Notes: generated from the letters alone by a model not told the origin. Shown: positions 17,685 to 58,348, counted from the first letter of the stretch. The stretch: DNA of 64,000 bases from a virus (IMGVR_UViG_3300032322_002570:1-64000); one strand, 5' to 3'. Program-made: numbers and translations.

Positions 17685-17865
17685 AACTCTCCTCCAGTGG
17701 ACTCCAGGCGCCACACCAATGAATCGGAAACACTTTGGGCCAAAACAAGGAGTCTTTTGGCGGCTTGGCTCGGCACTCGCCGACTGCTTGGCTAACGGGA
17801 ACGTAGTAGTAGCAGTTTTCGCACCGCTGTTTGGATCTCGGCGGATACGGTGAATGGTTAGCCAT
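17677..17865 (-). CDS. Small Cys-rich protein (CxxC...C...WC), possible metal/Fe-S binding
   Basis: CENCYYY...GECRAKPP...WPKVFPIHWCGAW. Confidence 0.5.
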   Translation of the reverse strand: MANHSPYPPRSKQRCENCYYYVPVSQAVGECRAKPPKDSLFWPKVFPIHWCGAWSPLEESCE

Positions 17866-19418: not shown

Positions 19419-19885
19419 CGAACCGGTGCGACGTGATCAAAGCCCTCAGTGAGGGAGGGGTGCTGCCACTTTGAAACCATGTCCTCGAGGACGCCTTCGG
19501 GGACCGCTCGATCACCCCTGGCCGCATTGCGCCCCCTCAGGGTGTCGATGTCAGCCTCGAAATAGAGGCAGATCTTGGTGTAATCGTCCGGGAAGCGGTT
19601 GGCCTTCTTGATACGCGTCTCCGGCGTGAGGTTGGTCTGGTCCCAGACCACGCTGCGGCGAGAGCGCAGCATGAGCTCGATGTCGCGCTTCAGGAACTGA
19701 GTGGCGCTCTTGATCTGGCCTGCGAAGATCTCATTGTACGGCCTGTCGGAGATCCTGGCCGCGAGTTCGATGTAGTGGTCTGTCGATAGCAGTCCTGCGT
19801 TTTTGAACGTAGGGTCAGCCAGGATTGCGGCGGCGTGGGTCGATTTTCCGGACCCCGGCGGCCCGGCCAGCATGATCAGGAACAT
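19415..19885 (-). CDS. P-loop polynucleotide 5'-kinase-like protein (AAA_33)
   Basis: GPPGSGKST, LSTD, WDQTN, RNAAR. Confidence 0.82.
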   Translation of the reverse strand: MFLIMLAGPPGSGKSTHAAAILADPTFKNAGLLSTDHYIELAARISDRPYNEIFAGQIKSATQFLKRDIELMLRSRRSVVWDQTNLTPETRIKKANRFPDDYTKICLYFEADIDTLRGRNAARGDRAVPEGVLEDMVSKWQHPSLTEGFDHVAPVR

Positions 19886-23947: not shown

Positions 23948-24764
23948 GAGCTCGTTTCAGGGGACTTTCACGAGGGCGGATGATGGGGATCGGGCTTTGC
24001 AGACCGAACCAGCAACAGGCTCTTGATTGGCGAACCAGGGTGCTTCCGCATGGCGAGGTCCCACACGCGACTGAGCCTAGAGATCGGCACAATCAGGTGC
24101 GAAATTACGCCATCCTCGTGGGTGATCTGGTAGTGGTAGCAAGACTCTTGGAGGCTTGACGCGGCCTCAATTGAGCAAACTGAACCTGCTGCAGTAGACA
24201 CCGCGTTACCAAAATCGATCACCTGTCTAGAGTACCACCTCAAGCCCACCCAGATCAACCTCGAGCGCAGATCCAGTGATCTGAAGCTCGTCCGGGTTCG
24301 GAGTGATGTAGACACACGAGGCGACACCTTCGCCCACCGGCACAGAGTTTTCGCCCAGGCCGATGCGGAACGATGGCGCATCCGGATCCGAGTCGCCGTC
24401 CTTGAATACACGCACACCGGGTGGGATTACGCGGTGCATCGCCAGCCTGTCGAGCAGGCCGTTCAGACGTTCACGGGTGGTGCGACTGGGGCCGCCATTG
24501 CCATCGTAGAACGAGGTGAACCCGACCCAGACTGCGCAGGGCTTCCAGTCATCACAGACCACTCGCAGGATCGGCTCGTCGAAGATGTCCACACGAAAGA
24601 TCTGAACGTCACGTGTGATCCGGTAGGTCACCAGGGTCGTTCCACTGGACCGCGAGCCGGAACCACGGAAGCGACGCAGCAAAAAGAAGTCAAGCAGTTC
24701 GCAGGCGAACTCGGTCAGGCGTCGGTTGGAGCGGGTGTTCATGGGGGATTGCCCTCTGAAAGGA

Positions 24765-25124
24765 TCATGGTAGCACGGAATCCGGCAGTTCAGGCCATTT
24801 ACCGCTCGGCTTGCGCGCCGAGACCCACCACCGCTTGACCGCCGGCTCGAGCCTGACGTGGTAGATCGTCATGACCTGAAACCACCGGACGCCCCACTGG
24901 TCCATCCCCTCCACTGAGTACGACGGCGACCGACTGGCCGCCAGGTCTGGCACAAAGCGGCGGCCTACGCGGTTCCAACTCGGCTCTTTGCCGCGCCACG
25001 AGAGCCGGCAACAGGGCCACGGCAGCTCTTCGCGGTCATAGAGTCGGCAGCAGGGACCTAGGACTCTGTAGGCAAAGCCGCCGCCTGGAGATCGGAGCCA
25101 CTGACCGTCATTGACTGGATGCAC
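24765..25124 (-). CDS. Conserved cyanobacterial-type hypothetical protein (start uncertain)
   Basis: GPCCRLYDREELPWPCCRLSWRGKEPSWNRVGRRFVPD. Confidence 0.5.
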   Translation of the reverse strand: MHPVNDGQWLRSPGGGFAYRVLGPCCRLYDREELPWPCCRLSWRGKEPSWNRVGRRFVPDLAASRSPSYSVEGMDQWGVRWFQVMTIYHVRLEPAVKRWWVSARKPSGKWPELPDSVLP

Positions 25125-31778: not shown

Positions 31779-31825
31779 TGATAGGCAAAGCAAGAGTTAG
31801 TCTTCCGCTTTCGCGGGCGTCGATT

Positions 31826-43120: not shown

Positions 43121-43681
43121 ATGGCCTATCGATTTAACCCTTTTTCCGGCACGCTGGATCTCGTTGGCGAGGGAACGATTGAGTCGGGACTGCAGCCCGG
43201 AGACGAGCTTACGGAACTTGGCAGTGGTGATGCGGCACAGGGACAGGTGCCGGCAGCAGATGGAGAAGGCGGAATCACATGGGAAGATCCGCAGTCGGGC
43301 GGCGTCGTGCAGCGCAGCACCGCCTCCGTGACCCTGACGGCTTTGGCTGGCGGCGCCACTGGCACCGGCACAATCACGCTGCCGAGGGCCTGCACGATCC
43401 TGAGCATCGAGACAAACCGCGCCGGATGGGTGAGGCTCTATGACAGCGCAGCCGCAAGTGCCGCCGACGCGTCACGACTACGAACGGCCGATCCCGGTCC
43501 TGATGATGGCGTGATCGCTGAGGTCATCACTACTGGAGCGGCAACAGCGGTGCCGTCTAACAAGCCTATTGCTGCAAACGCTGAGACGACACCGACTACC
43601 TCCTACCCTGTCAGGGTCACGAATGACGGGGCCACTGGGGATTTCACCGTGACCATTACCCACATCCAAATCCAACCCTGA
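43121..43681 (+). CDS. Cyanophage-type virion/fibre protein
   Basis: MAYRFNPFSG N-terminus; LSIETNRAGWVRLY...DGVIAEVITTG. Confidence 0.65.
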   Translation: MAYRFNPFSGTLDLVGEGTIESGLQPGDELTELGSGDAAQGQVPAADGEGGITWEDPQSGGVVQRSTASVTLTALAGGATGTGTITLPRACTILSIETNRAGWVRLYDSAAASAADASRLRTADPGPDDGVIAEVITTGAATAVPSNKPIAANAETTPTTSYPVRVTNDGATGDFTVTITHIQIQP

Positions 43682-43683
43682 TC

Positions 43684-44673
43684 ATGGCCGTCACCAAGCA
43701 GACCTACACCGCTACCGCCACCTGGACCGCATCAGGGCTGGCAGACATATTCCGCTCGGCATTTATTGATGCTGGCCTGATGACCGAATGGCACGACGCC
43801 TTCCTGTCGGGCTCCATTGAGAACCGTGTCCTTGCCGTTGCATACAACGCAGCCAAGACGTATGGCACAACCTATTACTGGTTCCAGTTCACTACTGGCG
43901 GTGTGTTCTACAGCAACGCAAGCGGGTGGAACGCTGCCAGCGACATCCCCAGCGGGACGCAGTATCTGGACTTCTATGCCACTACGACCAACGCCACGAC
44001 AAACCACGTGCAGCTTCTTGCACTGGCCACAAACACGACCGTAACGCTGACCCGTTACACGTCGAGCAACATGACCTTTTTCCTGTTGCGGAGCGGTTCC
44101 AATAGCTTGCCGTTTTGCATTGACAGTCCTGGCGTCACTTTTCAGTCGTGGGCTGACCTTGACAGGGGCTATCACAACGGTCTTCTAAGAGTGTCCACAG
44201 AGCTAGCAACCACGACAGCGGGCGTTCGATTTTCAACGCTTTTCAGATGCAGAAGGGCCTTCCTGGATGGATGCGTGAACTATGGTAGCACTCTTGTAAA
44301 CAACAACTACAACGACGAAATTCCAATCAGCAAATTTGCTTTCTTTGGCGCAGTTTCAAACAGCCCTAACAACGTTTTTGGCGCATCTTCTCCAGAATCG
44401 GGATTGGCGCTCCCATACGCGACAACCGCTGGGAACCCGGCATTTGCTGCCGGGTTCTCTCCTGTTTATACGGGACTCCAGCTTCAATCGGTTCTTTCTA
44501 GCACGATGCCAGACGACTTTGGGATCTTCGCTTCCAGGGCTGTCAACACCTGGTCGGTTCAGGACACACTGACCGTTACCGCTGGCGTCGAAGAGTATGA
44601 GGTTCTTTCCCGAGCCAACGGCGCTGGCGTTGCCGGGCAACCTTCTGCACTCGTGCTTGCGAGGACCGTCTGA
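43684..44673 (+). CDS. Putative tail fibre/virion protein
   Basis: MAVTKQTYTATATWTA...FIDAGLMTEW; Thr/Ser-rich beta-structured sequence. Confidence 0.6.
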   Translation: MAVTKQTYTATATWTASGLADIFRSAFIDAGLMTEWHDAFLSGSIENRVLAVAYNAAKTYGTTYYWFQFTTGGVFYSNASGWNAASDIPSGTQYLDFYATTTNATTNHVQLLALATNTTVTLTRYTSSNMTFFLLRSGSNSLPFCIDSPGVTFQSWADLDRGYHNGLLRVSTELATTTAGVRFSTLFRCRRAFLDGCVNYGSTLVNNNYNDEIPISKFAFFGAVSNSPNNVFGASSPESGLALPYATTAGNPAFAAGFSPVYTGLQLQSVLSSTMPDDFGIFASRAVNTWSVQDTLTVTAGVEEYEVLSRANGAGVAGQPSALVLARTV

Positions 44674-44901
44674 TGCCTGAATCCATTACACCAGCAGCAG
44701 GAATCAGCACCAGACCCGCTGCGACTGAAACCCTGTCAAGTTTTGCTCCCGACCTTGGTGGCACTGAGCAGCTTGACCGAGTTGCGTTCGATGCCCCATC
44801 CGGGCCCGGCCCCGAGCCGACTCGCCCTGCTGCAGGTTGGATATTCCCGAGAGGCTTATCTCTCTAGTTGCCGCACTCGTTCTGTTTCCTGACTCATTCC
44901 A

Positions 44902-47900
44902 ATGGCTTCCGATCTGATCCAGTTCATTCAGTCAAGCCTCTCTGAGGCGCAGGCAACAGAGGCTACGCTCGCCGCCCGCATTGCTGATCTCGACGCAGCA
45001 AACACCGAAATCGCGGAACTCGAGGCCGAGCTTGCGGCGGCCCAAGAACGCATCAGGGAGCTTGAAGCCCTCCAGAACAAAGTCCCCGTAGGCGGTGCTG
45101 ACACGCTGGCCGCTACTCAGGATACCCGGGTCACTTACTCAGCGGCTCAGCTACTCGCAAACGACAGTGACGCTGATCCCGGCGATGTGCTCAGGATCGC
45201 CAGCGTTGCCAGCGGCACTGGTGGAGCAGTGGTGCTCAATGCGGACGGTACCGTTACGTTTACGCCCGCTGCTGGCTTTAGTGGCGCCGCAAGTTTCGTC
45301 TACACCGTCACCGATGGGAAAGCGGCTTCCGCCTCTGTCAGCGTGACCGTGAACGTTGCCCCTGCTACCCCGCCAACTGCCAGACAGACCATTCTCACCA
45401 CCCAAGTTCCGGTTGACCTGAATCGCAGTGATAACCAACCGTGGGAGGTTGGTGTTCGATTCACAACTGCTGTTGATGGTCTGATTACCGCAATTCGTTT
45501 CTTCAAGAGCGCTGGTGAAACCGGCACTCGCACCGGCAAGTTGTGGACTGACAGTGCGCAGCTTGGATCTGTTGCATTTGCCAACGAAACTGCATCTGGC
45601 TGGCAGGAGCAGGCGTTTTCGACTCCAATCCAGGTTCGTGCAGGGACTGTCTACACGGCAAGCGTAAACATCAACCGTTTCTACACGGCGACCAACAACG
45701 GATTTGCTTCCGCAATCACAAACGGAAGCTTGACGGCTCCTGTCCAGGCCGGTCGTTACGGCGGCACTGTAAACGCTCGTCCGAACGCCATCTTTGCCAA
45801 TCAGAACTACTTTGTCGATGTGGTGTTCGTTGCGCAAGAGCAGCCAACAACAGCACTGGATTTTTCAATTCAGGGCGAAGCCGATGCGGCGCAGTTTCTG
45901 CGCACCGCCACCATGGGGCCAACGCTAAGCGAAATCACTACGCTGGCAGCGTCCAACAACGCAGAAAGCTGGTTCGATGCTCAGGTTGCAGCCAGTTATG
46001 ACGGCAGCCAATTTGCCGAATGGACACCGGGCGCCAGTGGCAAGTTCACCAGGAAACCGGGCTGGATCGCTCAGGTCAACTCATGGATGACGCTTCCCCG
46101 TGGCGAAGCGTTCTCAAACGAGGGCATCGACTCTGGCGAGGGTCACGCCGACAGACCGCAGCGGCAATGGTATAACTATCGAATGATTGACACGGGCTTA
46201 CTTTACAACAACCCGCCTGTTGGTGGATTGTGCAACCCAACAAGTGCTGCTGCTCCCAGGGCGCCGCAGAAATCGCTGATGCTGCGGCTGTCGTGGATTA
46301 TGTCGAAGTTCATTGTGACTTCAATTCCTGGCGGAGGTGTAGAGCGGACTAGGTATGACGGTCCAGCCTGGTACGAACTGATCTCCCGCCACGTATTCGG
46401 CAACTACGCCGACTTCCTGGAAGAAGTAACGTACTCTTTCCCAATGGCCAAAATGTTGACCCATTACGCAAATGCGCGTGGGCCGCAGGCCGATCAAAAC
46501 TTCGCGCGAGAAATCGTGCAACTAATGACCATGGGCATTTGGTCGCTCAACGACGGCGGTGTGCCGTTGCTCGATCAGAGCGGTCAGCGAGTGCCCAATT
46601 ATGTCAACCAGGATATTGTTGAGCTTTCCAAGGTCTACACCGGACTGGTGCATCCGTGGTTGCTGAATGAGCAGGTTTACTACCAGGATCCAGCTCCTGA
46701 GATTTTCCGTGCCGGCTTCTCGCTGACCACGGATCAAAGATGGATTAGGGATCATTTCGGTGCACACTTTAGAGGTGTTTCTGGCAACGACCGCGTTAGC
46801 CGCTCAAACGAGATTGACGTTCGATTCACTAACTACGGCTATCGCAAGCCCCTCAGCCGTGTTGAAGCGGGCAAACGGTATCGGATTGCCAGCGTCAGCA
46901 ATGGCGCTGCGTTCGCGTCCATAGGTGCCGACAGCACTCCGGCTGTCGGAGAGGTGTTTCTGGCAACGGCTGATGGCACGTCCGCCATGGTCAGCGCGGG
47001 GCTTGTCGAAGAGCAGCACATCAGCTTCGCCGGCTCCTATCCGCGCCTTAAAATCTCTGCAGGACTGCATGATTTTGGTGCGGTTTCAATCCCGCGATTC
47101 AACATCAACATCCCTGCTGGCACTGATCCAGAGACTGAAATCCGCCTGGTCACGAAAGCGCTGGTCAACCATCCCAGCACTGCACCCTATGTCTGCACAC
47201 GGCTGATTCGTTTCGCTACTACAGCCAATCCATCACCGGGCTACGTGTCTCGGGTTGTTCGGGTGTTCCGCGACAACGTAGACAACCCGCAGCAAATGGC
47301 CGCTGTGTGGAAAGCAATTCTGTTTGATCCAGAAGTGAGAACAGGCACCCGCACCAATGCTGCCAATTTTGGCAGGCTGCGTGATCCGTATGAACTGTTT
47401 ACCGGCCTGATTCGCCCGCTCGGATTTACGTCTCATCATACCAGCGACCGAAACGAAGTTGCCTGCTTCTACCGTGGGCCCGGAAATCAAAATGGGATGG
47501 CCCCTGCTGTTGCTCCTAGTAACAAGCAGGCTGGATTCCTATTTGTTACGGAGCGGGATGATGATGACTGGGACGCTCAGGTGTTGCTCGGTGTTTATCC
47601 CACCAGGGCGCCATCAATTTTTGGACACTACCCGCCTGACGGGACAATGCCAGGGGACACTGAAATCCTGTCTCCAGAATCAATCCTTTATACGCCTGGC
47701 CGCCTAAGTAGCGTCAGCAGAGTGCTGGAGCGGCTGATCAGCTTCGGGCCAAACGCATACCGCACGATTAACCGATCTGCGGTTGACCAGCCGATTTTGG
47801 TTGGCAGCTTGGCTCCAATCACGTATGACTGGTTGCCGACCAGTACACCGGCGGCTCTGGTAAACAGGCTTGATCTGCTGCTGACCGGCGGGCGTACACC

Positions 47901-48012
47901 CGCTAATCGGCAACAGGAAATTATCACGGCAATCACGCCTTTAAGCGGTGAAAACCGTGTCGGCTTGGTCGCACAGACCCTGATCAATTCCCCAGACTTC
48001 TATCGCCAGTGA
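44902..48012 (+). CDS. Fusion protein: coiled coil + cadherin-like Ig + DUF4082 + DUF1800
   Basis: LLANDSDAD...TFTPAAGFSGAASFVYTVTDG (Ig); EVGVRF...SGWQ...NYFVDVVF (DUF4082); AAQFLRTATMGPT, NFAREIVQLMTMG, HPSTAPYV, AILFDPE, GRLRDP (DUF1800). Confidence 0.85.
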   Translation: MASDLIQFIQSSLSEAQATEATLAARIADLDAANTEIAELEAELAAAQERIRELEALQNKVPVGGADTLAATQDTRVTYSAAQLLANDSDADPGDVLRIASVASGTGGAVVLNADGTVTFTPAAGFSGAASFVYTVTDGKAASASVSVTVNVAPATPPTARQTILTTQVPVDLNRSDNQPWEVGVRFTTAVDGLITAIRFFKSAGETGTRTGKLWTDSAQLGSVAFANETASGWQEQAFSTPIQVRAGTVYTASVNINRFYTATNNGFASAITNGSLTAPVQAGRYGGTVNARPNAIFANQNYFVDVVFVAQEQPTTALDFSIQGEADAAQFLRTATMGPTLSEITTLAASNNAESWFDAQVAASYDGSQFAEWTPGASGKFTRKPGWIAQVNSWMTLPRGEAFSNEGIDSGEGHADRPQRQWYNYRMIDTGLLYNNPPVGGLCNPTSAAAPRAPQKSLMLRLSWIMSKFIVTSIPGGGVERTRYDGPAWYELISRHVFGNYADFLEEVTYSFPMAKMLTHYANARGPQADQNFAREIVQLMTMGIWSLNDGGVPLLDQSGQRVPNYVNQDIVELSKVYTGLVHPWLLNEQVYYQDPAPEIFRAGFSLTTDQRWIRDHFGAHFRGVSGNDRVSRSNEIDVRFTNYGYRKPLSRVEAGKRYRIASVSNGAAFASIGADSTPAVGEVFLATADGTSAMVSAGLVEEQHISFAGSYPRLKISAGLHDFGAVSIPRFNINIPAGTDPETEIRLVTKALVNHPSTAPYVCTRLIRFATTANPSPGYVSRVVRVFRDNVDNPQQMAAVWKAILFDPEVRTGTRTNAANFGRLRDPYELFTGLIRPLGFTSHHTSDRNEVACFYRGPGNQNGMAPAVAPSNKQAGFLFVTERDDDDWDAQVLLGVYPTRAPSIFGHYPPDGTMPGDTEILSPESILYTPGRLSSVSRVLERLISFGPNAYRTINRSAVDQPILVGSLAPITYDWLPTSTPAALVNRLDLLLTGGRTPANRQQEIITAITPLSGENRVGLVAQTLINSPDFYRQ

Positions 48013-49349
48013 TTGCCATGACTTTCTCACCTGAACTCAAGGCGTCTCTGGCGCCACTCCGCCCAAGTGACTTTAAGGTTATCATCTGCTTCTTTGCCTT
48101 TGGTGGCCGCGATTCGCACAATGAGTTAGTCCCACGTAGCGGGAACAATCTGAGCCGGTACAATGAAGCCCGCCCCGGTGGCTTGCGCATTGAGCAATCG
48201 GAACTGCTTTCTCTGAATGGAAATAGCGCATGGGGATTGCACCCAAATATGGGCTATTTCCGAGATCAGTGGAACGCAAACAGATTGGCTGTGCTGCGTC
48301 ATGTAGGCATCCTGAACGAACCCGCCACCAGGACGCAACTACGTGAACAGCCGAGCCGGTACGAACCGCAGTTTCTTGGAGCGCATGACGCGCAGTGGGA
48401 GCAGTGGCAGGACGGCCTGGAGTTTCGCTCAGTAGCTCGGACTACTGGCTGGATGGGGCGACTCGCTTCGCTCCTTGAGGGAGTCTGGAACGTGCCAACT
48501 GCAGCAGCAGACAACGATCTGATGCTGAGCTGTGTATCCATCGGTGGCCTCAGTCGGCAACAAAGGGCATTTCCGCCTGACGGCTCTGTAGCGCTGCCAG
48601 TGGAAGCCAGGCCCGGAGCATTTGGGTATGGCTCCAGCCAGGCAACTCGCCTGCGAGAGCTTTTCACCGAGGCCGAAGGTGCTGGGCTGCCTGCTGCTGT
48701 TGACGCCAACCGCATTAGGCAGGGCTGGAAGCGTCAGGCACAAAAAAACCTAGCGGCTCCTGGGTTTATTCAAGGCCAGCTTCGCGCATTGCCCCAAGCT
48801 GTATCTGATGCTCTGGCCCCTGCGCCGCAGCTCCGCCCGATAGCCCAGGCGATCTACACAGCCCAACAGAATCAGGCACTTGGCATCAGGCGACTAGTCG
48901 CTTTTGTGCCAATCGGCGGCTGGGATCACCATGCAAACCTGCGGCCTCAGCATGATCCGCTGATTCTCGGCCTCAACAATTCTATGGCAGCGATGGCAGC
49001 GGCCATCAACGCCATGGGGCTTACGAACAGCGCGGTGCTTTGCACACAGAGCGAATTTGGCCGCACATTCCGTGGCAACAGCAACGCAGGTACAGACCAC
49101 GCATGGGCGGGCCATCAGTTTGTGATGGGCGGGCCAGTCATTGGAGGCATGTATGGCCCTGAGCCGAATTACGCCCCTACCGGCGAACACGTTGCTGACG
49201 ACAGCGGCAACATTTTTATTCCGCAGATCAGCACGGATCAGTATTACGCTACGCTGCTGCGGTGGTTCGGCTTACCAGTGGATGCCATCAACGCTGTGCT
49301 GCCAGGGGCTTCGCGGTTTACACCCCAAACCCTGAACTTTGTGCCTTAG
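48009..49349 (+). CDS. DUF1501 family protein, no Tat signal
   Basis: FGGRDSHN, GLHP, GWMGR, GGWDHH, SEFGRT, GTDHAW, GGPVIGG, STDQYYATLLRWFG. Confidence 0.88.
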   Translation: MIAMTFSPELKASLAPLRPSDFKVIICFFAFGGRDSHNELVPRSGNNLSRYNEARPGGLRIEQSELLSLNGNSAWGLHPNMGYFRDQWNANRLAVLRHVGILNEPATRTQLREQPSRYEPQFLGAHDAQWEQWQDGLEFRSVARTTGWMGRLASLLEGVWNVPTAAADNDLMLSCVSIGGLSRQQRAFPPDGSVALPVEARPGAFGYGSSQATRLRELFTEAEGAGLPAAVDANRIRQGWKRQAQKNLAAPGFIQGQLRALPQAVSDALAPAPQLRPIAQAIYTAQQNQALGIRRLVAFVPIGGWDHHANLRPQHDPLILGLNNSMAAMAAAINAMGLTNSAVLCTQSEFGRTFRGNSNAGTDHAWAGHQFVMGGPVIGGMYGPEPNYAPTGEHVADDSGNIFIPQISTDQYYATLLRWFGLPVDAINAVLPGASRFTPQTLNFVP

Positions 49350-49503
49350 CGAACCGACGACCTGACCTGTCATGGTACGGCTGCGTCCGAGCCGCCTGCC
49401 AGCGGCTCCCAATAAAAGACCGGCACGCGCCCGTGACTCGGAATAATATAGTGATGGGGCCTAACCTCTACGAGGCACATCGTCGTTCTCCGCTACTACT
49501 CCA

Positions 49504-49896
49504 ATGACTGCTCGCTCTACTTATCCGATTCGCGAGGGCTTTCATCTCGACGCGAACTCCCAGATCACCACTCAAGCCAAGGACCTGGGCTACGACCTGG
49601 GCACCGTTGGCACCATCCGCCTGATCGTGCTCGACGCCACTGTGGTGGCCCCTACCGGCAATGGCACCGGAGCCAGTATCCAACTGCAGGATGCCGATGA
49701 TTCCAACGCGGTGTTCTTCACCATCACGCAGGCCGACCTGGCCAATGCTGATGCCAACGGCGTCTACATCGACCACCTCCGTGGCGCCAAATTTGATGGC
49801 ATCCGGAATGTGAGGATGGCCTATGTCGCTGGGTCCGCCGGTACCGGCACTGCTGGCGCCATCACCGGCTTCAGCGTCTACCTTGATCGCGTCTGA
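49504..49896 (+). CDS. Putative capsid decoration/virion protein
   Basis: 130-aa beta-rich protein with strongly biased codons, followed by a terminator. Confidence 0.45.
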   Translation: MTARSTYPIREGFHLDANSQITTQAKDLGYDLGTVGTIRLIVLDATVVAPTGNGTGASIQLQDADDSNAVFFTITQADLANADANGVYIDHLRGAKFDGIRNVRMAYVAGSAGTGTAGAITGFSVYLDRV

Positions 49897-49914
49897 TCGC
49901 TAAAGGCGCACACT

Positions 49915-49940
49915 GGCCCGCCTAAACAGCGGGCTTCTGT
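49915..49940 (+). terminator. Probable intrinsic terminator
   Basis: GGCCCGC-CTAAACA-GCGGGCT-TCTGT. Confidence 0.5.
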
Positions 49941-49974
49941 GTAGGTATACTACCCCAGAACATATCCAGTCGAC

Positions 49975-50583
49975 ATGCACATCTACGGCGCACCGGTCTA
50001 CTACCGTAAAGAACTCGAAGACGGCAGAGTCCTTCGCCGTCGGGTGTTCTACCTGCAGGAAGCATCAGAGCTGGAAGGCCTCGGTTGGGAGCGTGGGAAC
50101 AAGCCCAAAGAGGAAGAGAGCGATACCCAGACCGAGCCCCAAGAGCAGGAAGAGCCCGATCCCGCGCCCAGCCCCGAACCAGCCGCCGAAGAGGTACTGG
50201 TGCCAGGGGTTGAAGACGACACCTTTGAAGCCGACGAGCAGATCGAAGAAAAGCAGCCGACCGAACTCGAGTTCATGAGCAAGGCTGAGCTGATTGAATA
50301 CGGCCGGAAGATCGGTGCTCCGGTCAGCGCATCGATGAACAAGCAGGCAATCGTGGATACGCTGAAGAAAGCCGAACCGCGCTTCCTGTATCCCGATAAA
50401 TGGGCGCCGCCCAAGAAGGCAAAGCGCTTTGACCGCATCACCGCCCCAGACGGCTCCGAATGGATCTTCGATCAGCCGCGCCTCGAGGATGGTCGCTACG
50501 AGCACGACGATCCGACGACCCCTGAGTTCGAGTCTGCGCTGACCTGGATGCCGTTCGAGGAAGTCGATGGAAGTGACGTATAG
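49975..50583 (+). CDS. Acidic head-region protein with a Rho-N/HeH-like helix pair
   Basis: MSKAELIEYG...MNKQAIV; RLEDGRYEHDDPTTP motif. Confidence 0.5.
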   Translation: MHIYGAPVYYRKELEDGRVLRRRVFYLQEASELEGLGWERGNKPKEEESDTQTEPQEQEEPDPAPSPEPAAEEVLVPGVEDDTFEADEQIEEKQPTELEFMSKAELIEYGRKIGAPVSASMNKQAIVDTLKKAEPRFLYPDKWAPPKKAKRFDRITAPDGSEWIFDQPRLEDGRYEHDDPTTPEFESALTWMPFEEVDGSDV

Positions 50584-50778
50584 CCAAGGGCCCCGGATCC
50601 TGGATGACGGAACAAACCTGGACCGGGACATTCTGGCAAGCCACCCAAGGACCAGCAGACGTCAGATCTCTGATCCTGTCTCCGACGGGTCGCTTGGAGA
50701 GCCCGGCTACGAACCTGGGCAGAAGAATCTCGATGGTTCCCTTCTCTAGGGAACACTAAACGGTAAAGAGGACGCGCA

Positions 50779-51117
50779 GTGGCTGCCACCATTTCACACA
50801 AACGAGGTGATACGTTCGAGTGGTATCTTGAGCTACCAGCCGACGAGTACGAGGATGGGTACTTTGTGGGCTGGACAGTCGCATCGCAGATCCGCAACAC
50901 GAAAGGAAGGCTTGTAGCGGAACTTAGCACGTCCTGGGGTACCCCAGCGGAGAATACTCGAGTGCTTAGGCTGTTCGCCGCCGATACGGCCGGATGGCCG
51001 CTTGGTGACCACGAGGCAGATGTCCAGTTCACACGTGAATCCGACGGATTTATTAAGTCGACTGAAACGTTCATAGTCTCCGTCGGGAAGGACGTAACCA
51101 TTACCGAAAATGGCTGA
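50779..51117 (+). CDS. BppU-N-like baseplate/tail adaptor
   Basis: KRGDTF...GWTVASQIR...DVQFT...STETF. Confidence 0.6.
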   Translation: MAATISHKRGDTFEWYLELPADEYEDGYFVGWTVASQIRNTKGRLVAELSTSWGTPAENTRVLRLFAADTAGWPLGDHEADVQFTRESDGFIKSTETFIVSVGKDVTITENG

Positions 51118-51341
51118 CAATCCAATACCGATTCGATTTGTCTCGTCAGGGCAGCCGATTCCGATCGAGATAAGCCCGTCAAGTGGAACCATCGAGCCAA
51201 CTGCGGCGATGACAAGCGCGGTTAAAGGGGAGAGAGGGGACCCTGGCATACATATCGGGCCAGAGCCACCCGAGAACACCTCCATCCTGTGGCTTGATAC
51301 TGGATCAACATAGACAAGTTGCCTCTGTAGCCAGGGTGAGC

Positions 51342-51351
51342 GGAATACTAA
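51342..51351 (+). promoter_or_regulatory. Putative phage-sigma late promoter GGAATACTAA (representative)
   Basis: GGWANACTA also at 42856, 49944, 50750, 54744 and 55643 (+) and at 26833 and 31797 (-). Confidence 0.6.
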
Positions 51352-51382
51352 GAAGGCACCCGGCTTTGCTGCATCCTGACAC

Positions 51383-51802
51383 ATGGCTTCCCATCTACAG
51401 AACAACTTCATCGCTGACCTGGCGGCCGGCAACCTGATTCCCGGAACTCACGAGTTCAGGATGACACTGCACACGTCGGCATACACGCCAAACAAGGACC
51501 ATAATCGGTTCGACGATGTGACCAACCAGGTAGCCAATGGCAACGGTTACACCACTGGCGGTGAAATTGTCACAATGACAATCACCACTGATAACGCCAA
51601 CGACCGAACCAGTATCAGCTTCTCTGAGCCTAGCTGGGCTTCGGCAAGCTTTACTGCTCGCTACGGCGTGGTGCGCAGGGCCAGGGGTGGCGCCGCGTCT
51701 GCCGACGAATTGATTGCGACGCTGGACTTCGGTCAAGATGTTACCGCAACCAATGGAACTTTTGCTACGGATGAGACTGCGCCATTCTACATCAATAACT
51801 GA
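51383..51802 (+). CDS. Phage tail/virion protein
   Basis: LHTSAYTP...NGNGYTTGG...LDFGQD. Confidence 0.65.
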   Translation: MASHLQNNFIADLAAGNLIPGTHEFRMTLHTSAYTPNKDHNRFDDVTNQVANGNGYTTGGEIVTMTITTDNANDRTSISFSEPSWASASFTARYGVVRRARGGAASADELIATLDFGQDVTATNGTFATDETAPFYINN

Positions 51803-51804
51803 TA

Positions 51805-52632
51805 ATGGCGATCACAACCTTTGATCAGTACATCGGGGCCTACAAACAGCACATCCAGCTCGCCAAAACCAACACCGTGACGACGGTTGCGGGCCGGGAG
51901 TCTACACTGATTGACCGTGCCGGCTTTCCGGCTGCCGGGTCGTTGTCGCCGTCGCAGACAACCAACGGCGTTGTGCCAACTGATGCAACGACCGGGTTCC
52001 CCGCGATCCAGACGTTCCAGGGCAGCAACAAAGGTTATCTGAGCCGGGTGGAGGCTTACAGCAATGTGGCCTGCACACTGTTCCTGTTTGATCTGCTGTT
52101 CTGGGCTGGCGGCACGGTGATTCCCACGACGGGAACCACGACTGTCACCCTGTCGTCGCAGCCAGACTTTTCGGGCAGGCTGCCGCTTGATGGCGGTGGT
52201 GTCAACCCAGCATGGAATGAAACGGAGCTGTGGCTGCAGTCCAACGTTGCCTGGTCCAACCATGCTCACACGGCATCAGTTGACTACACCGATCAGGACA
52301 ACAATGCTGGAGCCAATACGGGCAACATCAGCACGCAGAACCGCGTTATCAACTCCATGATGCGGATGCCGTGGGCTTCTGGTGACTACGGCACCCGCAT
52401 GCTGGAAGGCTACAAGCTGAACGGCATTTCTTCTGCAGCGGGTCAAGTCACGGCAATGGTGCTGCGCCGGATTTGGGCAGGAAGGCTGCAGGCGAACCAG
52501 TACATGGTATTTGGCCCTGATCTGACCGGGATGCCGCAGGTATTCGATACCTCTGCATTGTTTGTCGCCTGCAACACTGATTCAACCACGTCACCTACAC
52601 CGACCCTGATCCTGGAGATCGCGGAGGGGTAA
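51805..52632 (+). CDS. Virion structural protein
   Basis: MAITT N-terminus; LFDLL...; located in the tail gene block. Confidence 0.55.
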   Translation: MAITTFDQYIGAYKQHIQLAKTNTVTTVAGRESTLIDRAGFPAAGSLSPSQTTNGVVPTDATTGFPAIQTFQGSNKGYLSRVEAYSNVACTLFLFDLLFWAGGTVIPTTGTTTVTLSSQPDFSGRLPLDGGGVNPAWNETELWLQSNVAWSNHAHTASVDYTDQDNNAGANTGNISTQNRVINSMMRMPWASGDYGTRMLEGYKLNGISSAAGQVTAMVLRRIWAGRLQANQYMVFGPDLTGMPQVFDTSALFVACNTDSTTSPTPTLILEIAEG

Positions 52633-52635
52633 GCC

Positions 52636-54732
52636 ATGGCCCTACGGGCGCGGCGTGGCATCCTCACCCGATCCAATCGGCGCAACTTTGCTGCGACCAC
52701 TGCGCCGGTTCGCCCTGGCGCCTGGAGTGATGTAGCTGAATCGCTGTTTGGGCGCATTGATGCGCTTGACGGCAGCGTAGTTGCGCAGTATTCCGGTGCT
52801 ACGGCCTCCACGACCGTCGGAAGCGTGAGTGCGGCCGGGGCCGGTACGGCGGGGTATTCAGTCGCATCCTCATCGACAACGCAAGGCCAATGGACAGCCA
52901 GTAGTGCTGTCAATGCCACTGGAGATTATGTCGGTGGCACCGCAGCAACGACGGCGTCCTCTTGGGCGGCCTTGGCCAGCGCAACAGCAGCCCACGCCGG
53001 GCCAGGCACTAGCGTTGCTGCGGCCATCAACGCGGCGACTGGCACCGCATCCGCGAGCTGGACTAGCGCGGCGACGGCAACAACGGCGGCAGGATGGACC
53101 GGATCGGCATCGGCCTCCGGCGACTATCTGGGCCCTGGTACAACGACGGCGCATGGTACTCACGCCGCTACGGGCGCGGCGACGGCAGGCCACATAGGTT
53201 CCGTCAACACCACGACGGCCGGCTCTTACTTGGGAGACGGAGCGGCCACTGCTCGGTACGACGGCTCCCAGGGCGAAGCGGTCGGCGGAACGTGGTCCGT
53301 CATCTTAAGCGGTACTGGCGGATACGAGGGCGCGAGCAATGCGGCAACCGCTGCATCTAACACAGCTACTGGCACTGCGGGTTCGCAACATACTGGCTCG
53401 ACATGCGAAACCGCACCAGGGACTAACACAGCAAGCGGCGGCGCTATCGCTGACTACACTGGCGCGGTTGTCGAAACGACGACAGGAACATACGCAGCCG
53501 CTGGTGGAACAGGGAACACTGGCGTCTATTCAGGCGGGGACACGGCGGCTCAGGATGCAGTATGGGAAGCCAGCGCTACTGCCGTCGGAAGCCACGGGGG
53601 TACATCAAGCAATACATCGAGCTGCGAATACGAGGCCAACGGCTCTGCGCTGGCAGTCTGCACAGGAGTAGCAGGTGGAACAGAGCAGGCCGAGTGGGTC
53701 ACGCGTGGCGATTGCCTGTCGGCGTGGGGCGGGGAGTCGGGTGCAATCACCGTCGGCGAATGGGTCGCCAATGGTGGTACTGGCTCCACGGGTGAATACG
53801 GAGGCACTGCTGGCACGGTAGTCGCCGGCTCCACGCAGGCATCCGGATCCGCATTGGCGCCGAGCCCTGGCAGCGAAGCCGACACTGGCAGTGGCGCATG
53901 GCAGGCCTCTGTATCGGTCTCAGCGGCATACCTGCCAATCGATTTGAACGTCAATGCCGCAGAGTGGAATAGCGCAGGGGCTGGGATAGCTGAGTACAGC
54001 GCTACTGGAGATGCCAGTGTCGCCCAAGCGAGTTGGACTGCTGGCGTGTCCTCCAACGCTGGATACGCGGGCGGGAGTACCACAACTTCGAGCGGCACGT
54101 GGAGCGTTGCCGGCGGCGCGTCGTCGTCCTTCAGTGGCACAGAGGCAGATACCACTCAGGCTAATTGGACGGCCGTGTCCACGAGTAACGGTCTTGGCGA
54201 ATACGTCGGCCCAGGAACTGCTGCATCAGCAGGGCAATGGTCGGCCATAGGAGGGGCGACGTCTAGTTCTGCCGGCTCGGAGACGACACCGATCGCGGCG
54301 GTATGGGGAGGGGCCGGAAGCGCTGCGCCGTCGTGGGCAGGGGATCAGGCTGCAATAGTCGGCGGCCAATACGCGGGACGGGTGCATCAACTAGCGATAT
54401 GGACTGGCTACCAGTCTTCGCCGGGAAGCGCCGCGTGGGCGGCTCACGGCAGTGCAGTCGCTACTCACAGTGGTGCAAACAGGTCGACCGAGTATGCCGT
54501 ATGGATTGCGGAATGCGATGCCATCGCAGCATTCGGTGGTGATACAGCCCTCGTGTGGCCGGCAGAATGGGTCTCGACGGCGACAGGTAGCACAATACTG
54601 TACTGGTACGACAGTAATCTGGACGAATGGAGGCCGGGATCTCTGATGAGATGGAGTACGGCGAGGGGCGCGTGGGAGAACGCCGAATGTCGCGCATTCT
54701 CTGGTGGTGAGTGGCGTTCTGTTAGCGGCTGA
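52636..54732 (+). CDS. Ala/Gly/Thr/Ser-rich fibre protein with ~22-aa repeats
   Basis: Units such as YLGPGTTTAHGTHAATGAATAG / HIGSVNTTTAGSYLGDGAATAR / YDGSQGEAVGGTWSVILSGTGG. Confidence 0.7.
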   Translation: MALRARRGILTRSNRRNFAATTAPVRPGAWSDVAESLFGRIDALDGSVVAQYSGATASTTVGSVSAAGAGTAGYSVASSSTTQGQWTASSAVNATGDYVGGTAATTASSWAALASATAAHAGPGTSVAAAINAATGTASASWTSAATATTAAGWTGSASASGDYLGPGTTTAHGTHAATGAATAGHIGSVNTTTAGSYLGDGAATARYDGSQGEAVGGTWSVILSGTGGYEGASNAATAASNTATGTAGSQHTGSTCETAPGTNTASGGAIADYTGAVVETTTGTYAAAGGTGNTGVYSGGDTAAQDAVWEASATAVGSHGGTSSNTSSCEYEANGSALAVCTGVAGGTEQAEWVTRGDCLSAWGGESGAITVGEWVANGGTGSTGEYGGTAGTVVAGSTQASGSALAPSPGSEADTGSGAWQASVSVSAAYLPIDLNVNAAEWNSAGAGIAEYSATGDASVAQASWTAGVSSNAGYAGGSTTTSSGTWSVAGGASSSFSGTEADTTQANWTAVSTSNGLGEYVGPGTAASAGQWSAIGGATSSSAGSETTPIAAVWGGAGSAAPSWAGDQAAIVGGQYAGRVHQLAIWTGYQSSPGSAAWAAHGSAVATHSGANRSTEYAVWIAECDAIAAFGGDTALVWPAEWVSTATGSTILYWYDSNLDEWRPGSLMRWSTARGAWENAECRAFSGGEWRSVSG

Positions 54733-54769
54733 ACTCGGTAAAAGGAATACTATGTAAAACACTCCGTCA

Positions 54770-55075
54770 ATGCCACAGAAAAAGAAGCGCTCCACCGCAA
54801 GCTTCTACGCCAACAACCCTGAGGCGTACAAGAAGAAGCTCGCCTACGACAAGAAGCGCAACGCCAGGCCGGATCGCAAGGAGTATCGGGCGGAACTTGC
54901 TGCTGAAAGGCGGGCGCGTGGGTTGATGGGCAAGTCGGGCCCCGATGTCAGCCACACCAAAGGCGGTGGCTTCAAACTCGAGGATCCATCAAAGAACAGG
55001 GCTCGAAACGGGCATGGCGACAACGGCCGGCTGGCGTCAGGTAAAGGCACCCGCAAGTCCAAGCCCAGGAAGTAA
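54770..55075 (+). CDS. Small basic protein with minimal HNH-like motif
   Basis: DVSHTKGG...EDPSKNRARNG. Confidence 0.55.
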   Translation: MPQKKKRSTASFYANNPEAYKKKLAYDKKRNARPDRKEYRAELAAERRARGLMGKSGPDVSHTKGGGFKLEDPSKNRARNGHGDNGRLASGKGTRKSKPRK

Positions 55076-55597
55076 TCAGCACTCCCTGACTGGCGCGAAC
55101 TCGCCGAAGAAGCGTAGCTCCGCGCAGCGCCTCGCGGCGATGGCTTCGTCGACGGAGGAGAAACTGCCAATATATTCCTCCCTGCCATTCTTCTTGATTC
55201 TCACCCGCCACTTTCCGTGGTACAGCCTGATACCAGTGAAGCCGGAGGAGTTATTGCTCTGCAAGTTTACCCTGTTCCTATTGTTCTCCGCGTGACTAGC
55301 CAGTCTAAGGTTCTCCGGCCTATTGTCCCATGGCTTGCCATTGACGTGATCGATCTCTAGACTGCCAGGGTTCCCGCCGTTGTATAGCGCCCAGACGATA
55401 CGATGGTTTTGATATAGCCTGAATTGAAAGCGGACCTGCCAATAGCCATCCTTTCGAAGGGTCCCGGCAGGGTCGCCCGGCCTCATCTTACCCCTCGCTA
55501 CCGCATAGACCAGGCCGCTCGGGCCCTCGCTGTCCACGCGAAAGGTCTCGCCGAGGATTCTTAGTAGCTCTCCCTCCAGTGGCATCGCGTCTCTCAT
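55076..55597 (-). CDS. HNH-AP2 homing endonuclease
   Basis: HRIVW...IDHVNG..DNRPENLRLASHAENNRN; AP2 domain NSSGFTG...YIGSFSSVDEAIAAR. Confidence 0.88.
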   Translation of the reverse strand: MRDAMPLEGELLRILGETFRVDSEGPSGLVYAVARGKMRPGDPAGTLRKDGYWQVRFQFRLYQNHRIVWALYNGGNPGSLEIDHVNGKPWDNRPENLRLASHAENNRNRVNLQSNNSSGFTGIRLYHGKWRVRIKKNGREEYIGSFSSVDEAIAARRCAELRFFGEFAPVREC

Positions 55598-55673
55598 CCT
55601 GTTCGCGCCAAGGGGTACAAGCCTATCTTACCACACTGATGCGGAAGACTAAGGAGTCCCCGCCAGGCCAGGC

Positions 55674-55973
55674 ATGGAGCATCCGTTCGCCGGGATGGTC
55701 ATCAGGTTTGTCTTGGTGGTCTATACCGTGACTATCGCAACCTCGGTGTACGACGTAGTGCGTTGTAGCGCAACTGCATCTAACGCATGTATTGCAGAAC
55801 GTGCTGCGCTGATTGAGGTGTCGAACCAGGTGCCGATGGTGCTATTCGCCTGGCTGGCTGATTCGCCGCTGAGCGGTAGAGGATCAGAAAAGAAACCGAC
55901 CGAGAGGAAGGTGCCGGTACCCAGAAAAAAGCAGGACGACGACCCCCGAAACAATCCGGAGCCGATGGGATGA
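55674..55973 (+). CDS. Membrane protein, possible holin
   Basis: Two hydrophobic segments and a charged C-tail; upstream of the endolysin. Confidence 0.4.
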   Translation: MEHPFAGMVIRFVLVVYTVTIATSVYDVVRCSATASNACIAERAALIEVSNQVPMVLFAWLADSPLSGRGSEKKPTERKVPVPRKKQDDDPRNNPEPMG

Positions 55974-56277
55974 TGATCATGCCTTCCAAGTTTTTCAGGC
56001 TTACGACTTTTTCGCGTCCGGCGAAAAAGCTTGTGCGGAAAATCAGCGGACTGCTTCAGTCGGAGGAAGCAGCACTTAGACCATACCTGCCTGGCATCTT
56101 TCAGTACATCGATCGCTCGATGCCAGGCATGCTGACTAATGCCGACGGCTATGAAGTCTACGAGCTCATTGCTCGCGGCATTCAGCGCGAAACCGGTCGC
56201 CGCGCAAAAGCGTCAGAGGTGCGAATCGTCACAAGACTGTACGACCCAATCGTCGCCGCCGCAAAGGTGTTCATCCA

Positions 56278-56694
56278 ATGAGCGAGGGACTGACCAGGGA
56301 AGAGGTATCCAGGATTGACGCGGCCGACCTGTACCACAGATTGGGCAAGCTCGAGGGCCTGATTGAGCTCAACAGCAAGACTCACCTGGCAACGCAGGAG
56401 CAGCTCCAGGTGCTCGCGAGCGCACTGTCGACCCTGCAGGCAAAGCAATCAAGCCTAGAGGCAGCAATGGACTCCAACCGCGCGGTATCGAGCGCCGGCT
56501 ACGAAGGCCTGAAATCGATAGTCATTCCAATCGCGGCGATCATCGTCACATACATCGTCGCTCGCGGCACAACGCCGCCATGCCAAAACCACAGCAATCC
56601 AAGGATTGCTCCCACACTACCCAGGGTGACTCCAATTGTTGACTGGAGACCAAGTAGCGGAACTTGCCCTGAAGTACGGCGCAAGATGGCCTGA
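56278..56694 (+). CDS. Coiled-coil plus TM protein, possible lysis accessory
   Basis: Coiled coil followed by IVIPIAAIIVTYIV; adjacent to the endolysin. Confidence 0.45.
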   Translation: MSEGLTREEVSRIDAADLYHRLGKLEGLIELNSKTHLATQEQLQVLASALSTLQAKQSSLEAAMDSNRAVSSAGYEGLKSIVIPIAAIIVTYIVARGTTPPCQNHSNPRIAPTLPRVTPIVDWRPSSGTCPEVRRKMA

Positions 56695-57709
56695 GCTCGT
56701 AAGGGCCCAGTGGCAGGTCGAGTCCGGTGGGGGCAAGTATCTTGCTGCGCGAAACAATCTGTTTGGGCTCAAGAGTTCAACAGGAACTCCTGCGGAAACA
56801 ACCGAGTACGAGAACGGCGTTCCGATTACAATCACAGACAATTTCAAGGAATTCGAGTCGCAGGAAGAGTGCATACGCTACCTGGTTGAAAAGTGGTATA
56901 AGGACTACAAGGGGTATAAGGGCGTTAATAATGCGGCAAGTGCAGAAGATGCAGCGAGGATGCTCCAGTCGGAAGGATATGCTACGGACCCAGACTATGC
57001 CAGCAAGCTGATCAAGGCAATGCCCGCTGCACAAACTCGCGCAAGCCTATACAATGCCGTCCTGCACTTTGAAGGACTGCCGCATCAGATTGACGCGCTC
57101 AAAAAGCTTGACGCTTCGCTGACACCGCAACAAGCCGAGGAATTCACCAGGAATTGGCGCAAGCAGGTCAGACCAAAGTTTCCGCTGGCGGTGCCTTACT
57201 TCTACCAGTCAGACAGCAAGACGGGACAGGGCCAGCGGATGTGTCAGGCCAGCGCTATTGCATCCAGGGTGAAACGCATTGCTCCGGATATAATCAAGGA
57301 CGACGACGACTATCTCAAGGTTGTCAATCGCTTCGGCGACACCGTGTCTCAGCAGGCGCACCAGGCGGCGCTTGCACATCTTGGGCTGAAGGCTGAATTC
57401 AGGACCAATGGCAGTGAAAAGCTTCTACTGAGCCTGCTGGACGATCTTGTAGACGTGCCCATCGGCGTACTGCACAAGGGGCATGTTTCCAATCCTGTCG
57501 GCGGCGGGCATTGGATCGACGTGATTGGCTACGACTCTAAGTACTTCCACGTGCATGATCCATTCGGCGAGATGGACGTCGTGAATGGCGGTTATGTGAA
57601 GACAGGGCCAACTGACGGGAAGAACCAGCGCTACACGCGCAAGAACCTGTTGAAGCGCTGGTTGATCAGTTCAAATTCGGATGGCTGGTTGTGGATCATT
57701 CGCAAGTAA
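56636..57709 (+). CDS. Endolysin: GH73 glucosaminidase + C39-like peptidase
   Basis: AQWQVESG..NNLFGLK..GYATDPDY; VPYFYQ..RMC..GGGHW...VHDPFG. Confidence 0.88.
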   Translation: MLTGDQVAELALKYGARWPELVRAQWQVESGGGKYLAARNNLFGLKSSTGTPAETTEYENGVPITITDNFKEFESQEECIRYLVEKWYKDYKGYKGVNNAASAEDAARMLQSEGYATDPDYASKLIKAMPAAQTRASLYNAVLHFEGLPHQIDALKKLDASLTPQQAEEFTRNWRKQVRPKFPLAVPYFYQSDSKTGQGQRMCQASAIASRVKRIAPDIIKDDDDYLKVVNRFGDTVSQQAHQAALAHLGLKAEFRTNGSEKLLLSLLDDLVDVPIGVLHKGHVSNPVGGGHWIDVIGYDSKYFHVHDPFGEMDVVNGGYVKTGPTDGKNQRYTRKNLLKRWLISSNSDGWLWIIRK

Positions 57710-58348
57710 TCCTGTGGTTTCTGCCTGGGTACATGTTTGACGGCCATAGGATCGTCAGCACTGGCGTAGCGCTGCCCGCGACTCAGCATATCAATCCCAA
57801 GACTGGACGCCTCATGTACTACGTCCGCCCTTTGTTCGAAGGTGGCGCCGGAGTCGGACTCTACGTCAGCCACGACGGTCTGGTGAAGGCCCTGGGCGGC
57901 TATACGGACGCCTCTTCGCCGCCGGACTCCTCATCCTCACCAGCGTCATAGGACAGACCTGGGATGCTCTCCACGACGCCGCGTAGGTAGGCGTGCACCC
58001 GGGCCGGCTCCCAGCCGTGCTGGTTTACCAGGACCATCCCGATCTGGTTCAGGGCCACCGTGTGGCCGACCGTCCAGAGGCGACGCTGGATGGCGTCGTC
58101 CCTGATAACGGAGGCCTGCTGGATCACGCCGAGTTCCGACAGGTCTTGGCTCTGCTCGGCAAGCAATCGCGAGTGTTCAGCCCTCTCTCGATCCAGGGCG
58201 AACATCAGCCACTTGGCAAACGCCTGGATGCCAGCAATTAGCGCACCGAAGAAGAGTGACGTGACTGCAGAGACCGCGCGATGCAGCATGATCAGCAGCA
58301 GGATCAACGACCCAAAGATCGATCCGACGGCCCTGAACAGAAAAGCTC

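Follow-up and report, generated by a model that had tools for sequence, protein, structure and literature searches.

DUF1800 and DUF1501 are very large orphan families of exported proteins, and the structure of DUF1800 is unsolved. In Proteobacteria, Planctomycetota, Verrucomicrobiota, and other groups, the two are encoded by tightly coupled genes and exported, DUF1501 by a twin-arginine translocation (Tat) leader and DUF1800 mostly by a Sec-like one, and cellular pairs are co-located with bacterial chitin-synthase genes in chs-DUF1800-DUF1501 operons (PMC5122149). Here we describe such a pair in a virus, at positions 44,902 to 49,349 of IMGVR_UViG_3300032322_002570:1-64000. This window, the whole stretch of 64,000 nucleotides that was analysed, is part of a 73,855-bp IMG/VR virus record. 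The window pair shares with cellular pairs the families, the gene order, the tight coupling, the core motifs, and the DUF1501 fold. However, both of its proteins are leaderless, and the phage-borne DUF1800 protein carries a helical N-terminus, an immunoglobulin-like (Ig) domain, a DUF4082 domain, and a 133-residue insert that set it apart from the cellular proteins. The other described system that bears on this locus is the phage tail fibre, encoded in P2 at the gpH/gpG slot after gpJ and gpI. Both constituents, the cellular pair and modular phage fibres, are already known. Both window genes are genuine phage genes and belong to a signal-less clade of this bacterial pair, and sequence comparisons support the view that this clade recurs in phage morphogenesis modules, fused to recognisable tail or fibre parts.

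Judged by its gene content, the contig is phage and its carrier an S-CBS2-like cyanosiphovirus, the portal being 59% identical to that of Synechococcus siphovirus S-CBS2. A preliminary description of the window had reported two coupled genes with a GTGA overlap, identified them as DUF1800 and DUF1501, and noted a cadherin-like Ig domain and DUF4082 on the former, no signal peptide on DUF1800, and no twin-arginine leader on DUF1501; all of this was borne out. The TGA stop codon of the DUF1800 open reading frame (ORF), at 48010-48012, overlaps the GTG start of DUF1501 at 48009. Recorded gene calls use an alternative DUF1501 start, the ATG at 48018 (443 aa, P0003), which lies 6 nt past the DUF1800 stop, and the genes are tightly coupled whichever start is used. 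The pair is laid out as follows.

44902-48012, plus strand: ORF of the DUF1800 fusion protein (P0001), 1036 aa
44902-45075, plus strand: P0001 residues 1-58, an Ala/Glu/Leu-rich, helical, coiled-coil-like N-terminus, from the translation
45076-45816, plus strand: P0001 residues 59-305, cadherin-like Ig domain followed by DUF4082
45895-46656, plus strand: N-terminal half of DUF1800, residues 332-585, Pfam profile positions 2-192
46657-47055, plus strand: insert in DUF1800, 133 residues (586-718)
47056-48012, plus strand: C-terminal half of DUF1800 and stop codon, residues 719-1036 (Pfam match to about residue 1034), profile positions 204-418
48009-49349, plus strand: ORF of DUF1501 (P0002), 446 aa, leaderless, with a modelled alkaline-phosphatase-superfamily fold, Pfam E 3.6e-23

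Both family assignments lie far above the curated Pfam gathering cut-offs, with 136.7 bits against 26.1 for DUF1800 (PF08811), whose profile is covered nearly whole, and 82.8 bits against 27 for DUF1501 (PF07394). The Ig domain (Cadherin_5/Big_9, residues 59-152; Pfam Cadherin_5 E 1.4e-24) and DUF4082 (residues 168-305; Pfam 120 bits, E 8.4e-35) together form a unit common to rhizobial surface proteins of about 1700 aa annotated 'DUF4082 domain-containing', and identity to rhizobial DUF4082 repeats is 45% over 79% of P0001 residues 1-320. Signal peptides and twin-arginine motifs are lacking in both window proteins; the DUF1501 protein lacks an RRxFL motif and has about 20 residues ahead of its first core strand, against 40-55 in Tat-bearing relatives. 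The first 58 residues of P0001 are a candidate oligomerisation or anchor element. They match PHROG 4341 weakly (E 1e-4), and a heptad heuristic gave 73% against 40%, a weak signal that is compatible with a coiled coil; of the N-terminal coiled coil proposed in the preliminary description, the helical character stands and the coil itself is simply compatible with the heuristic.

Absence of export signals prevails in the lineage to which the pair belongs. The window DUF1501 aligns over its full length with 120 homologues (E down to 1e-134), the closest of which (34-52% identity) all lack a Tat leader; the Tat motif is present in 92 of the 121 DUF1501 homologues listed. In a maximum-likelihood tree (the trees are quick-search trees with support from the Shimodaira-Hasegawa-like approximate likelihood ratio test, SH-aLRT, only), the leaderless proteins form a clade of 15 (SH-aLRT 100) made up of the window protein, three viral proteins (from L005, L009, and L004, the last being P0023), and 11 metagenome proteins. 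For DUF1800, an exhaustive search with the DUF1800 part of P0001 returned relatives in 4,311 clusters (50% identity) at E <= 1e-3, and the tree contains a 24-member clade (SH-aLRT 99) in which 20 members are without any signal. Nested within it, as the nearest kin of the window protein, are P0123, P0124, and P0149, which have twin-arginine leaders. The DUF1800 and DUF1501 trees group partners alike. Where the core block of DUF1800 has the consensus PDENYAREIMQLFTIGL, the window protein reads ADQNFAREIVQLMTMG, and it keeps the invariant columns of a 43-sequence alignment, A3 (N214, R217, E218, Q221, G226, T261, G262, P443, D490, and others). Those signal-less clade members whose context is known are, on their flanking sequences, mostly phage-borne.

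A search of IMG/VR for the pair and its synteny, suggested in the preliminary description, was run and found that signal-less pairs recur beside morphogenesis genes. While a single-protein pattern scan of IMG/VR with P0002 returned nothing, two alignment-based scans gave matches, at 8 and 17 loci. A DUF1800 gene with a leaderless DUF1501 after it, within or adjoining morphogenesis genes, is present on 12 or more additional IMG/VR contigs. This order was found by local hmmsearch in L016, L018, L019, L022, L023, L025, L027, and L028, several flanking genes in L016, L023, and L027 being identified by eye only; further carriers are L003/L009, L005, and L010, along with L004 and L008, in which the upstream part is cut by contig ends. 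Gene orders at seven of these loci are given below.

L009/L003: Baseplate_J, Tail_P2_I-like, DUF1800, DUF1501, 977-aa ORF, TerL, sigma factor
L005: portal, major capsid, Ig-repeat protein, pair
L010: TerL, fibre-like ORF, pair, portal, major capsid, internal virion protein
L027: fibre-like ORF, pair, TerL (PF17289), portal
L028: TerL, portal, major capsid (39% identical to a Rhizobium phage capsid), fibre-like ORF, pair
L019: pair, TerL, portal
L022: TerL, then pair, on a contig of 76.9 kb (CheckV 100%)

The 322-kb contig IMGVR_UViG_3300037882_003354 holds two pairs about 27 kb apart, L006/L021 and L025. The L006 pair is classical, with Sec and Tat leaders, and L025 combines a leaderless DUF1501 with a 1110-aa DUF1800.

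A clear example of anchor swapping comes from L009, an S-TIM5/S-TIM54-like cyanomyovirus that is syntenic with cyanophage S-TIM54. In S-TIM54, the orthologue of the L009 gpI-like protein is named 'virion structural protein' (E 8e-79), and the next S-TIM54 gene encodes a 659-aa protein likewise deposited as 'virion structural protein'. At its N-terminus (about 90 residues), the L009 DUF1800 matches this 659-aa protein with 40% identity over 47 residues (E 7e-5) and 44% over 36 residues (E 2e-4), and beyond these N-terminal segments the two diverge. Because the N-terminus and the slot after gpJ and gpI are shared and the remainder differs, the anchor appears to have been kept and the distal part swapped in these S-TIM5-like cyanophages. 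This looks like the module exchange usual among tail fibres, and it is the strongest single piece of evidence here. While slot and N-terminus are those of a phage fibre, the distal part differs, consisting of DUF1800 and a separate partner of alkaline-phosphatase fold rather than a beta-helix, knob, or lectin tip. Other members of the clade point the same way: the N-termini of P0151 and P0156 match the minor tail protein family phrog_356 (E 3e-12 and 6e-14), others begin with collagen tail-fibre PHROG repeats (E 1e-45), and the 1084-aa DUF1501 of L019 has a C-terminal extension resembling the 'tail protein' of Azospirillum phage Cd (E 6e-15).

The nearest bacterial kin lie on RECK01000309.1 (L031), a contig of a Wenzhouxiangella metagenome-assembled genome (MAG) that carries P0123 and P0124. 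It has two tandem pairs at 295-8510 (P0123 with P0005, and P0124 with a 458-aa ORF), in each of which DUF1800 bears the Tat leader and the DUF1501 behind it has none, the reverse of the usual arrangement. These pairs share with the window pair 42-52% identity, the long insert, the leaderless DUF1501, and an alanine at position 125 of that protein. They differ in that DUF1800 begins with a twin-arginine leader (MKRRTF...), in place of which the phage protein has the helical, Ig, and DUF4082 domains. In Tat hitchhiking, a leader on one partner implies that the complex formed before export. As these kin bear the Tat leader on DUF1800 alone, they independently predict a pre-formed DUF1800-DUF1501 complex; RECK01000309.1 is a candidate case of hitchhiker export, by which its complex is presumably translocated. 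Complex formation is also backed by the existence of natural single-chain DUF1501-DUF1800 fusions (P0138, P0148, and a 1991-aa ORF in L026). Taken from sequence, both observations speak for the two-subunit complex that the preliminary description had proposed. Its further suggestion, that the phage replaced export with a virion anchor, fared less evenly: the pair is indeed signal-less and fused to additional domains, and the N-terminus matches no known anchor. For DUF1501, moreover, the loss of export is not a phage-specific step, because the nearest bacterial DUF1501 proteins are leaderless too. The L026 fusion lies at 126-6101 of IMG/VR GVMAG-S-ERX556063-31, a contig labelled as a giant-virus MAG; its ORF matches both profiles and has a hydrophobic N-terminal segment.

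The insert that divides DUF1800 is a further mark of this lineage. In alignment A3 it spans 105-146 residues in the window protein (133), P0123, P0125, P0149-P0153, and L009, compared with 40-65 residues in second-tier DUF1800 proteins and 10-30 in classical ones, and alignment through the insert was confined to the top-tier relatives. In the model, residues ~644-712 fold as a small SH3-like barrel that carries the GKRYRI...FASIGA...GEVFLATADG module and weakly resembles SH3-like FeoA/DtxR domains (VIA Z 4.2). The insert contains one copy of a repeat that in the relative P0154 matches PHROG 6002 'virion structural protein' (E 4e-23), and this supports an earlier remark that it resembles a module of phage fibre proteins. 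The AlphaFold model of residues 320-1036 is well defined (predicted local distance difference test, pLDDT, 84.5; predicted template modelling score, pTM, 0.90). Its core matched no solved structure (best Foldseek E 1.0; none at Z >= 5 VIA-wide), a result that does not imply a novel fold.

For DUF1501 (pLDDT 79, pTM 0.84), the model places the core alpha/beta fold in the alkaline-phosphatase superfamily, as had been surmised in the preliminary description. Matches with VIA Z 16-17 include EptC and, with a root-mean-square deviation of 3.4-3.7 A over about 246 residues, Xac NPP (7mw8), ENPP1/3, choline sulfatase, and PafA, and Foldseek gave E 8e-5 to choline sulfatase; a sequence search of the PDB with both window proteins found nothing relevant. 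Ten residues (D35, N38, H126, Q129, D306, H308, R352, N357, D363, and H364) are equally conserved in 12 viral and 103 classical DUF1501 proteins, and D35, D306, H308, D363, and H364, all invariant, are putative metal-site residues. Position 125, at a helix N-cap, is serine in 100 of the 103 classical proteins, and Ser125 is the best nucleophile candidate, with T146 as an alternative. Alanine stands at this position in the window protein, L004, L009, L022, and 10 of the 11 nearest metagenome proteins. Catalysis by the window DUF1501 is therefore plausible but not assured, given Ala125 alongside the conserved Asp and His residues.

We propose that, late in infection, the DUF1800 fusion and DUF1501 would associate stably in the cytoplasm as a heterocomplex. 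In it, the helical N-terminus of the DUF1800 protein would serve for attachment or oligomerisation, and the Ig domain, DUF4082, and SH3-like insert would be accessory binding domains. The complex would come to be carried by the virion as an accessory appendage, the tail being its most plausible site, with DUF1501 riding on DUF1800 much as it may do on the Tat-leader-bearing DUF1800 of the nearest bacterial kin. Its target would be a host-envelope polymer bearing phosphate or sulphate esters, which the particle-borne complex would bind and might also modify, and the existence of a signal-less, fibre-fused phage clade does point to a surface-polymer-directed role. That the pair of the carrier phage is such a virion-displayed appendage, probably on the tail, is a reading in which we have moderate confidence, and the same reading seems more probable for the S-TIM54-like relative L009 than for the window phage.

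Several observations weigh against a virion appendage. The pair occurs in 0 of 50,697 GenBank phages. No identified tail gene adjoins the window pair, nor does the contig include the tail module: searches of its 73,855 bp found no tape-measure-sized ORF (S-CBS2 gp21 has 956 aa) and no tail-tube gene, and none of the S-CBS2 tail genes gp13-gp33 has a match there except the C-terminus of gp31. The tail module probably lies beyond a contig end, and the CheckV completeness of 92% is likely too high because that module appears to be missing. Thus the earlier placement of the pair 'between tail/fibre genes' holds insofar as an upstream ORF resembles the gp31 C-terminus, and is otherwise not borne out, no tape-measure or tail-tube gene having been found on the contig. 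Several podovirus-like contigs have the pair beside TerL, a position that is compatible with the tail-fibre end of an operon and does not prove it. The helical N-terminus of P0001 has no significant match among window and genome proteins or S-CBS2 proteins, and matches no known virion anchor in these comparisons or among PHROGs. Any role for DUF1800 is a guess, because its core has no solved structural relative. If Ser125 is the nucleophile, the Ala125 subclade of the window is not a conventional hydrolase. Lastly, GC content at third codon positions (GC3) is 0.58-0.63 in the four-gene block 43121-49349 (0.63 in its first ORF, of 186 aa), compared with 0.73-0.80 in core genes, and this low-GC3 block could be a mobile auxiliary cassette.

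The main alternative is that the pair is a non-structural auxiliary cassette, whose soluble complex, cytoplasmic or released at lysis, acts on a host metabolite or on the envelope polymers of neighbouring cells. The absence of an identified tail gene beside the window pair fits this alternative, as does the GC3 of the block, low as in the carrier's other accessory genes (a glycosyltransferase family 2, GT2, gene and the endolysin); furthermore, the exported Tat/Sec version in L006 shows another phage carrying a pair that must act in the host periplasm. However, a cassette of this kind does not account for the recurrent presence, in members of the clade, of fused tail or fibre N-termini and of a tail-protein domain, nor for the L009 pair filling the slot after baseplate J and gpI, and loss of the export signals bars the proteins from the compartment in which the cellular homologues act. 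We consider it possible but unlikely.

More doubtful is a particle-borne pair with no catalytic function, either as a receptor-binding tip or with DUF1501 as an assembly partner like P2 gpG, the fold being kept as a binding scaffold. The replacement of the near-invariant Ser125 of classical DUF1501 by alanine in the window's subclade would fit such a role, and in L009 a smaller partner gene comes after a large fibre-like one, as in P2, where gene H precedes gene G. Against it, the ten conserved residues are essentially invariant in the viral copies, seven of which retain Ser125, and Ala125 is also found in bacterial Tat-exported kin, so that it is not a sign of phage-specific decay.

Very unlikely, in our view, is packaging of the pair in the head as internal virion proteins ejected into the host periplasm, where the cellular homologues work. 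In L005 the pair does follow capsid and tail-adaptor-sized genes and precede four large unknown ORFs, an arrangement like that of the T7 internal core genes, and the L010 block includes an internal virion protein. Yet neither protein resembles known ejection proteins, a tail channel would hardly admit a folded complex of 1036 and 446 residues, and fibre N-termini, collagen repeats, and Ig or lectin-like domains better fit external display than ejection.

An artefact, whereby a bacterial operon came to lie in a phage contig through chimeric assembly or contamination with host DNA, has negligible probability: GC and GC3 do lie below those of core genes and the nearest homologues are on a bacterial MAG contig, but a chimera is unlikely because S-CBS2-like phage genes flank the pair on both sides and identical pair proteins are on record from two ~73.9-kb contigs, while the bacterial kin are merely 42-52% identical and the N-terminal fusion and absence of leaders are common to many independent viral contigs.

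With regard to precedent, a literature search found no description of a phage-borne DUF1800-DUF1501 pair, a DNA search with the pair region had no match among GenBank phages, no PHROG covers the DUF1800 or DUF1501 domain, and the 50,697 GenBank phage records contain no homologue of either protein, save for the Ig domain of P0001. The preliminary claim that no phage example had been described holds for the papers searched and for these records, and needs qualifying in that UniProt/BFVD lists one uncharacterised 'DUF1800 family protein' from an uncultured Caudovirales phage (E 3e-17). We suggest, more tentatively than for the carrier itself, that the two-subunit DUF1800-DUF1501 module may constitute an undescribed class of tail appendage, spread among marine and freshwater sipho-, myo-, and podovirus-like phages by swaps of the N-terminal anchor, with its enzyme subunit loaded by riding on its partner as in Tat hitchhiker export. 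If this is true, an alkaline-phosphatase-fold, two-subunit module joins the tail-borne devices for host recognition and depolymerisation, and phages give a first experimental handle on the substrate of a major orphan exported bacterial pair, the phage pairs being small, expressible complexes for biochemistry.

The genes around the pair were identified with PHROGs and tblastn. Portal, TerS/TerL, sigma factor, primase, an intein-bearing RNR, thyX, exonuclease, and RusA lie on the minus strand, and the endolysin lies on the plus strand. The plus-strand block 43121-57951 is the counterpart of S-CBS2 gp41-gp54 and is headed by a 186-aa ORF, a 329-aa ORF, and the pair; downstream of the pair come gp41-like, endonuclease-VII-like, and low-complexity genes and then the endolysin. 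The two ORFs ahead of the pair and two head genes on the remainder of the contig (64001-73855, L013) are listed here.

43121-43681, plus strand: 186-aa ORF, residues 43-183 resembling the C-terminal end of S-CBS2 gp31 'structural protein'
43684-44673, plus strand: 329-aa conserved viral hypothetical protein, nearest ESM Atlas clusters mostly viral hypotheticals of ~325 aa
~70362-71456, minus strand: major capsid gene, by synteny with S-CBS2
71479-72237, minus strand: head scaffolding gene (PHROG 206, E 6e-25), just upstream of the major capsid gene

The 186-aa ORF matches phrog_9627 (E 2.6e-23) and, by tblastn, S-CBS2 positions 24569-25048 (32% identity over 162 aa); the 329-aa ORF has no Pfam, PHROG, or GenBank-phage match. 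The window pair's neighbours (186, 329, 130, 202, 139, 275, and 698 aa) are absent beside the pair in the other loci. A strong terminator-like hairpin at 44431-44459 on the plus strand (12-bp stem with 8 GC pairs, T-rich tail) sits within the 3' portion of the 329-aa ORF, some 440 nt ahead of the DUF1800 start codon. Two possible readings are that this ORF has been called too long and that the pair is transcribed on its own. Scans for sigma-70 promoters and terminators were at background level, and 8-mer enrichment on crude ORF calls gave no signal of an upstream promoter motif shared by the pair and the structural genes.

The scaffolding gene is 56% identical to S-CBS2 gp36 (L011, 29477-30208), deposited as 'host specific protein J', a name that is probably wrong to judge by this match. 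A more conventional candidate for a fibre of the carrier phage is a low-complexity protein of 698 aa (52636-54732, plus strand), which lies ahead of the endolysin, has no Pfam or PHROG match, and occupies the place of the S-CBS2 'collagen like minor tail' and 'PE_PGRS' genes.

The GT2 gene mentioned above, at 15247-17714 on the minus strand of the window, encodes a BcsA-like processive enzyme (phmmer E ~4e-12 to cellulose synthase 4hg6/4p00, residues 165-526). A cyanosiphovirus here carries a polysaccharide-synthase module; the 3' end of the GT2 gene is overlapped by a 362-aa ORF without a PHROG match. The bacterial chs-DUF1800-DUF1501 operons prompted a comparison between this gene and the pair, and a general link was rejected, as GT2 is missing from five further viral records that carry the pair, including one that is 97% complete. 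At 18966-21078 (minus strand), an RNA ligase (PHROG 562) adjoins a split polynucleotide kinase/phosphatase (PHROGs 415, 505, and 2071), a set of the tRNA-repair type that lies between dUTPase and the portal region. The 1505-aa RNR ORF (27276-31793, minus strand) has helicase-like and endonuclease-like inserts, and in L013 a dCTP deaminase (3586-5307, plus strand) contains an HNH-type insertion, with PHROG 1663 spanning residues 19-571 and HNH matches at 273-405.

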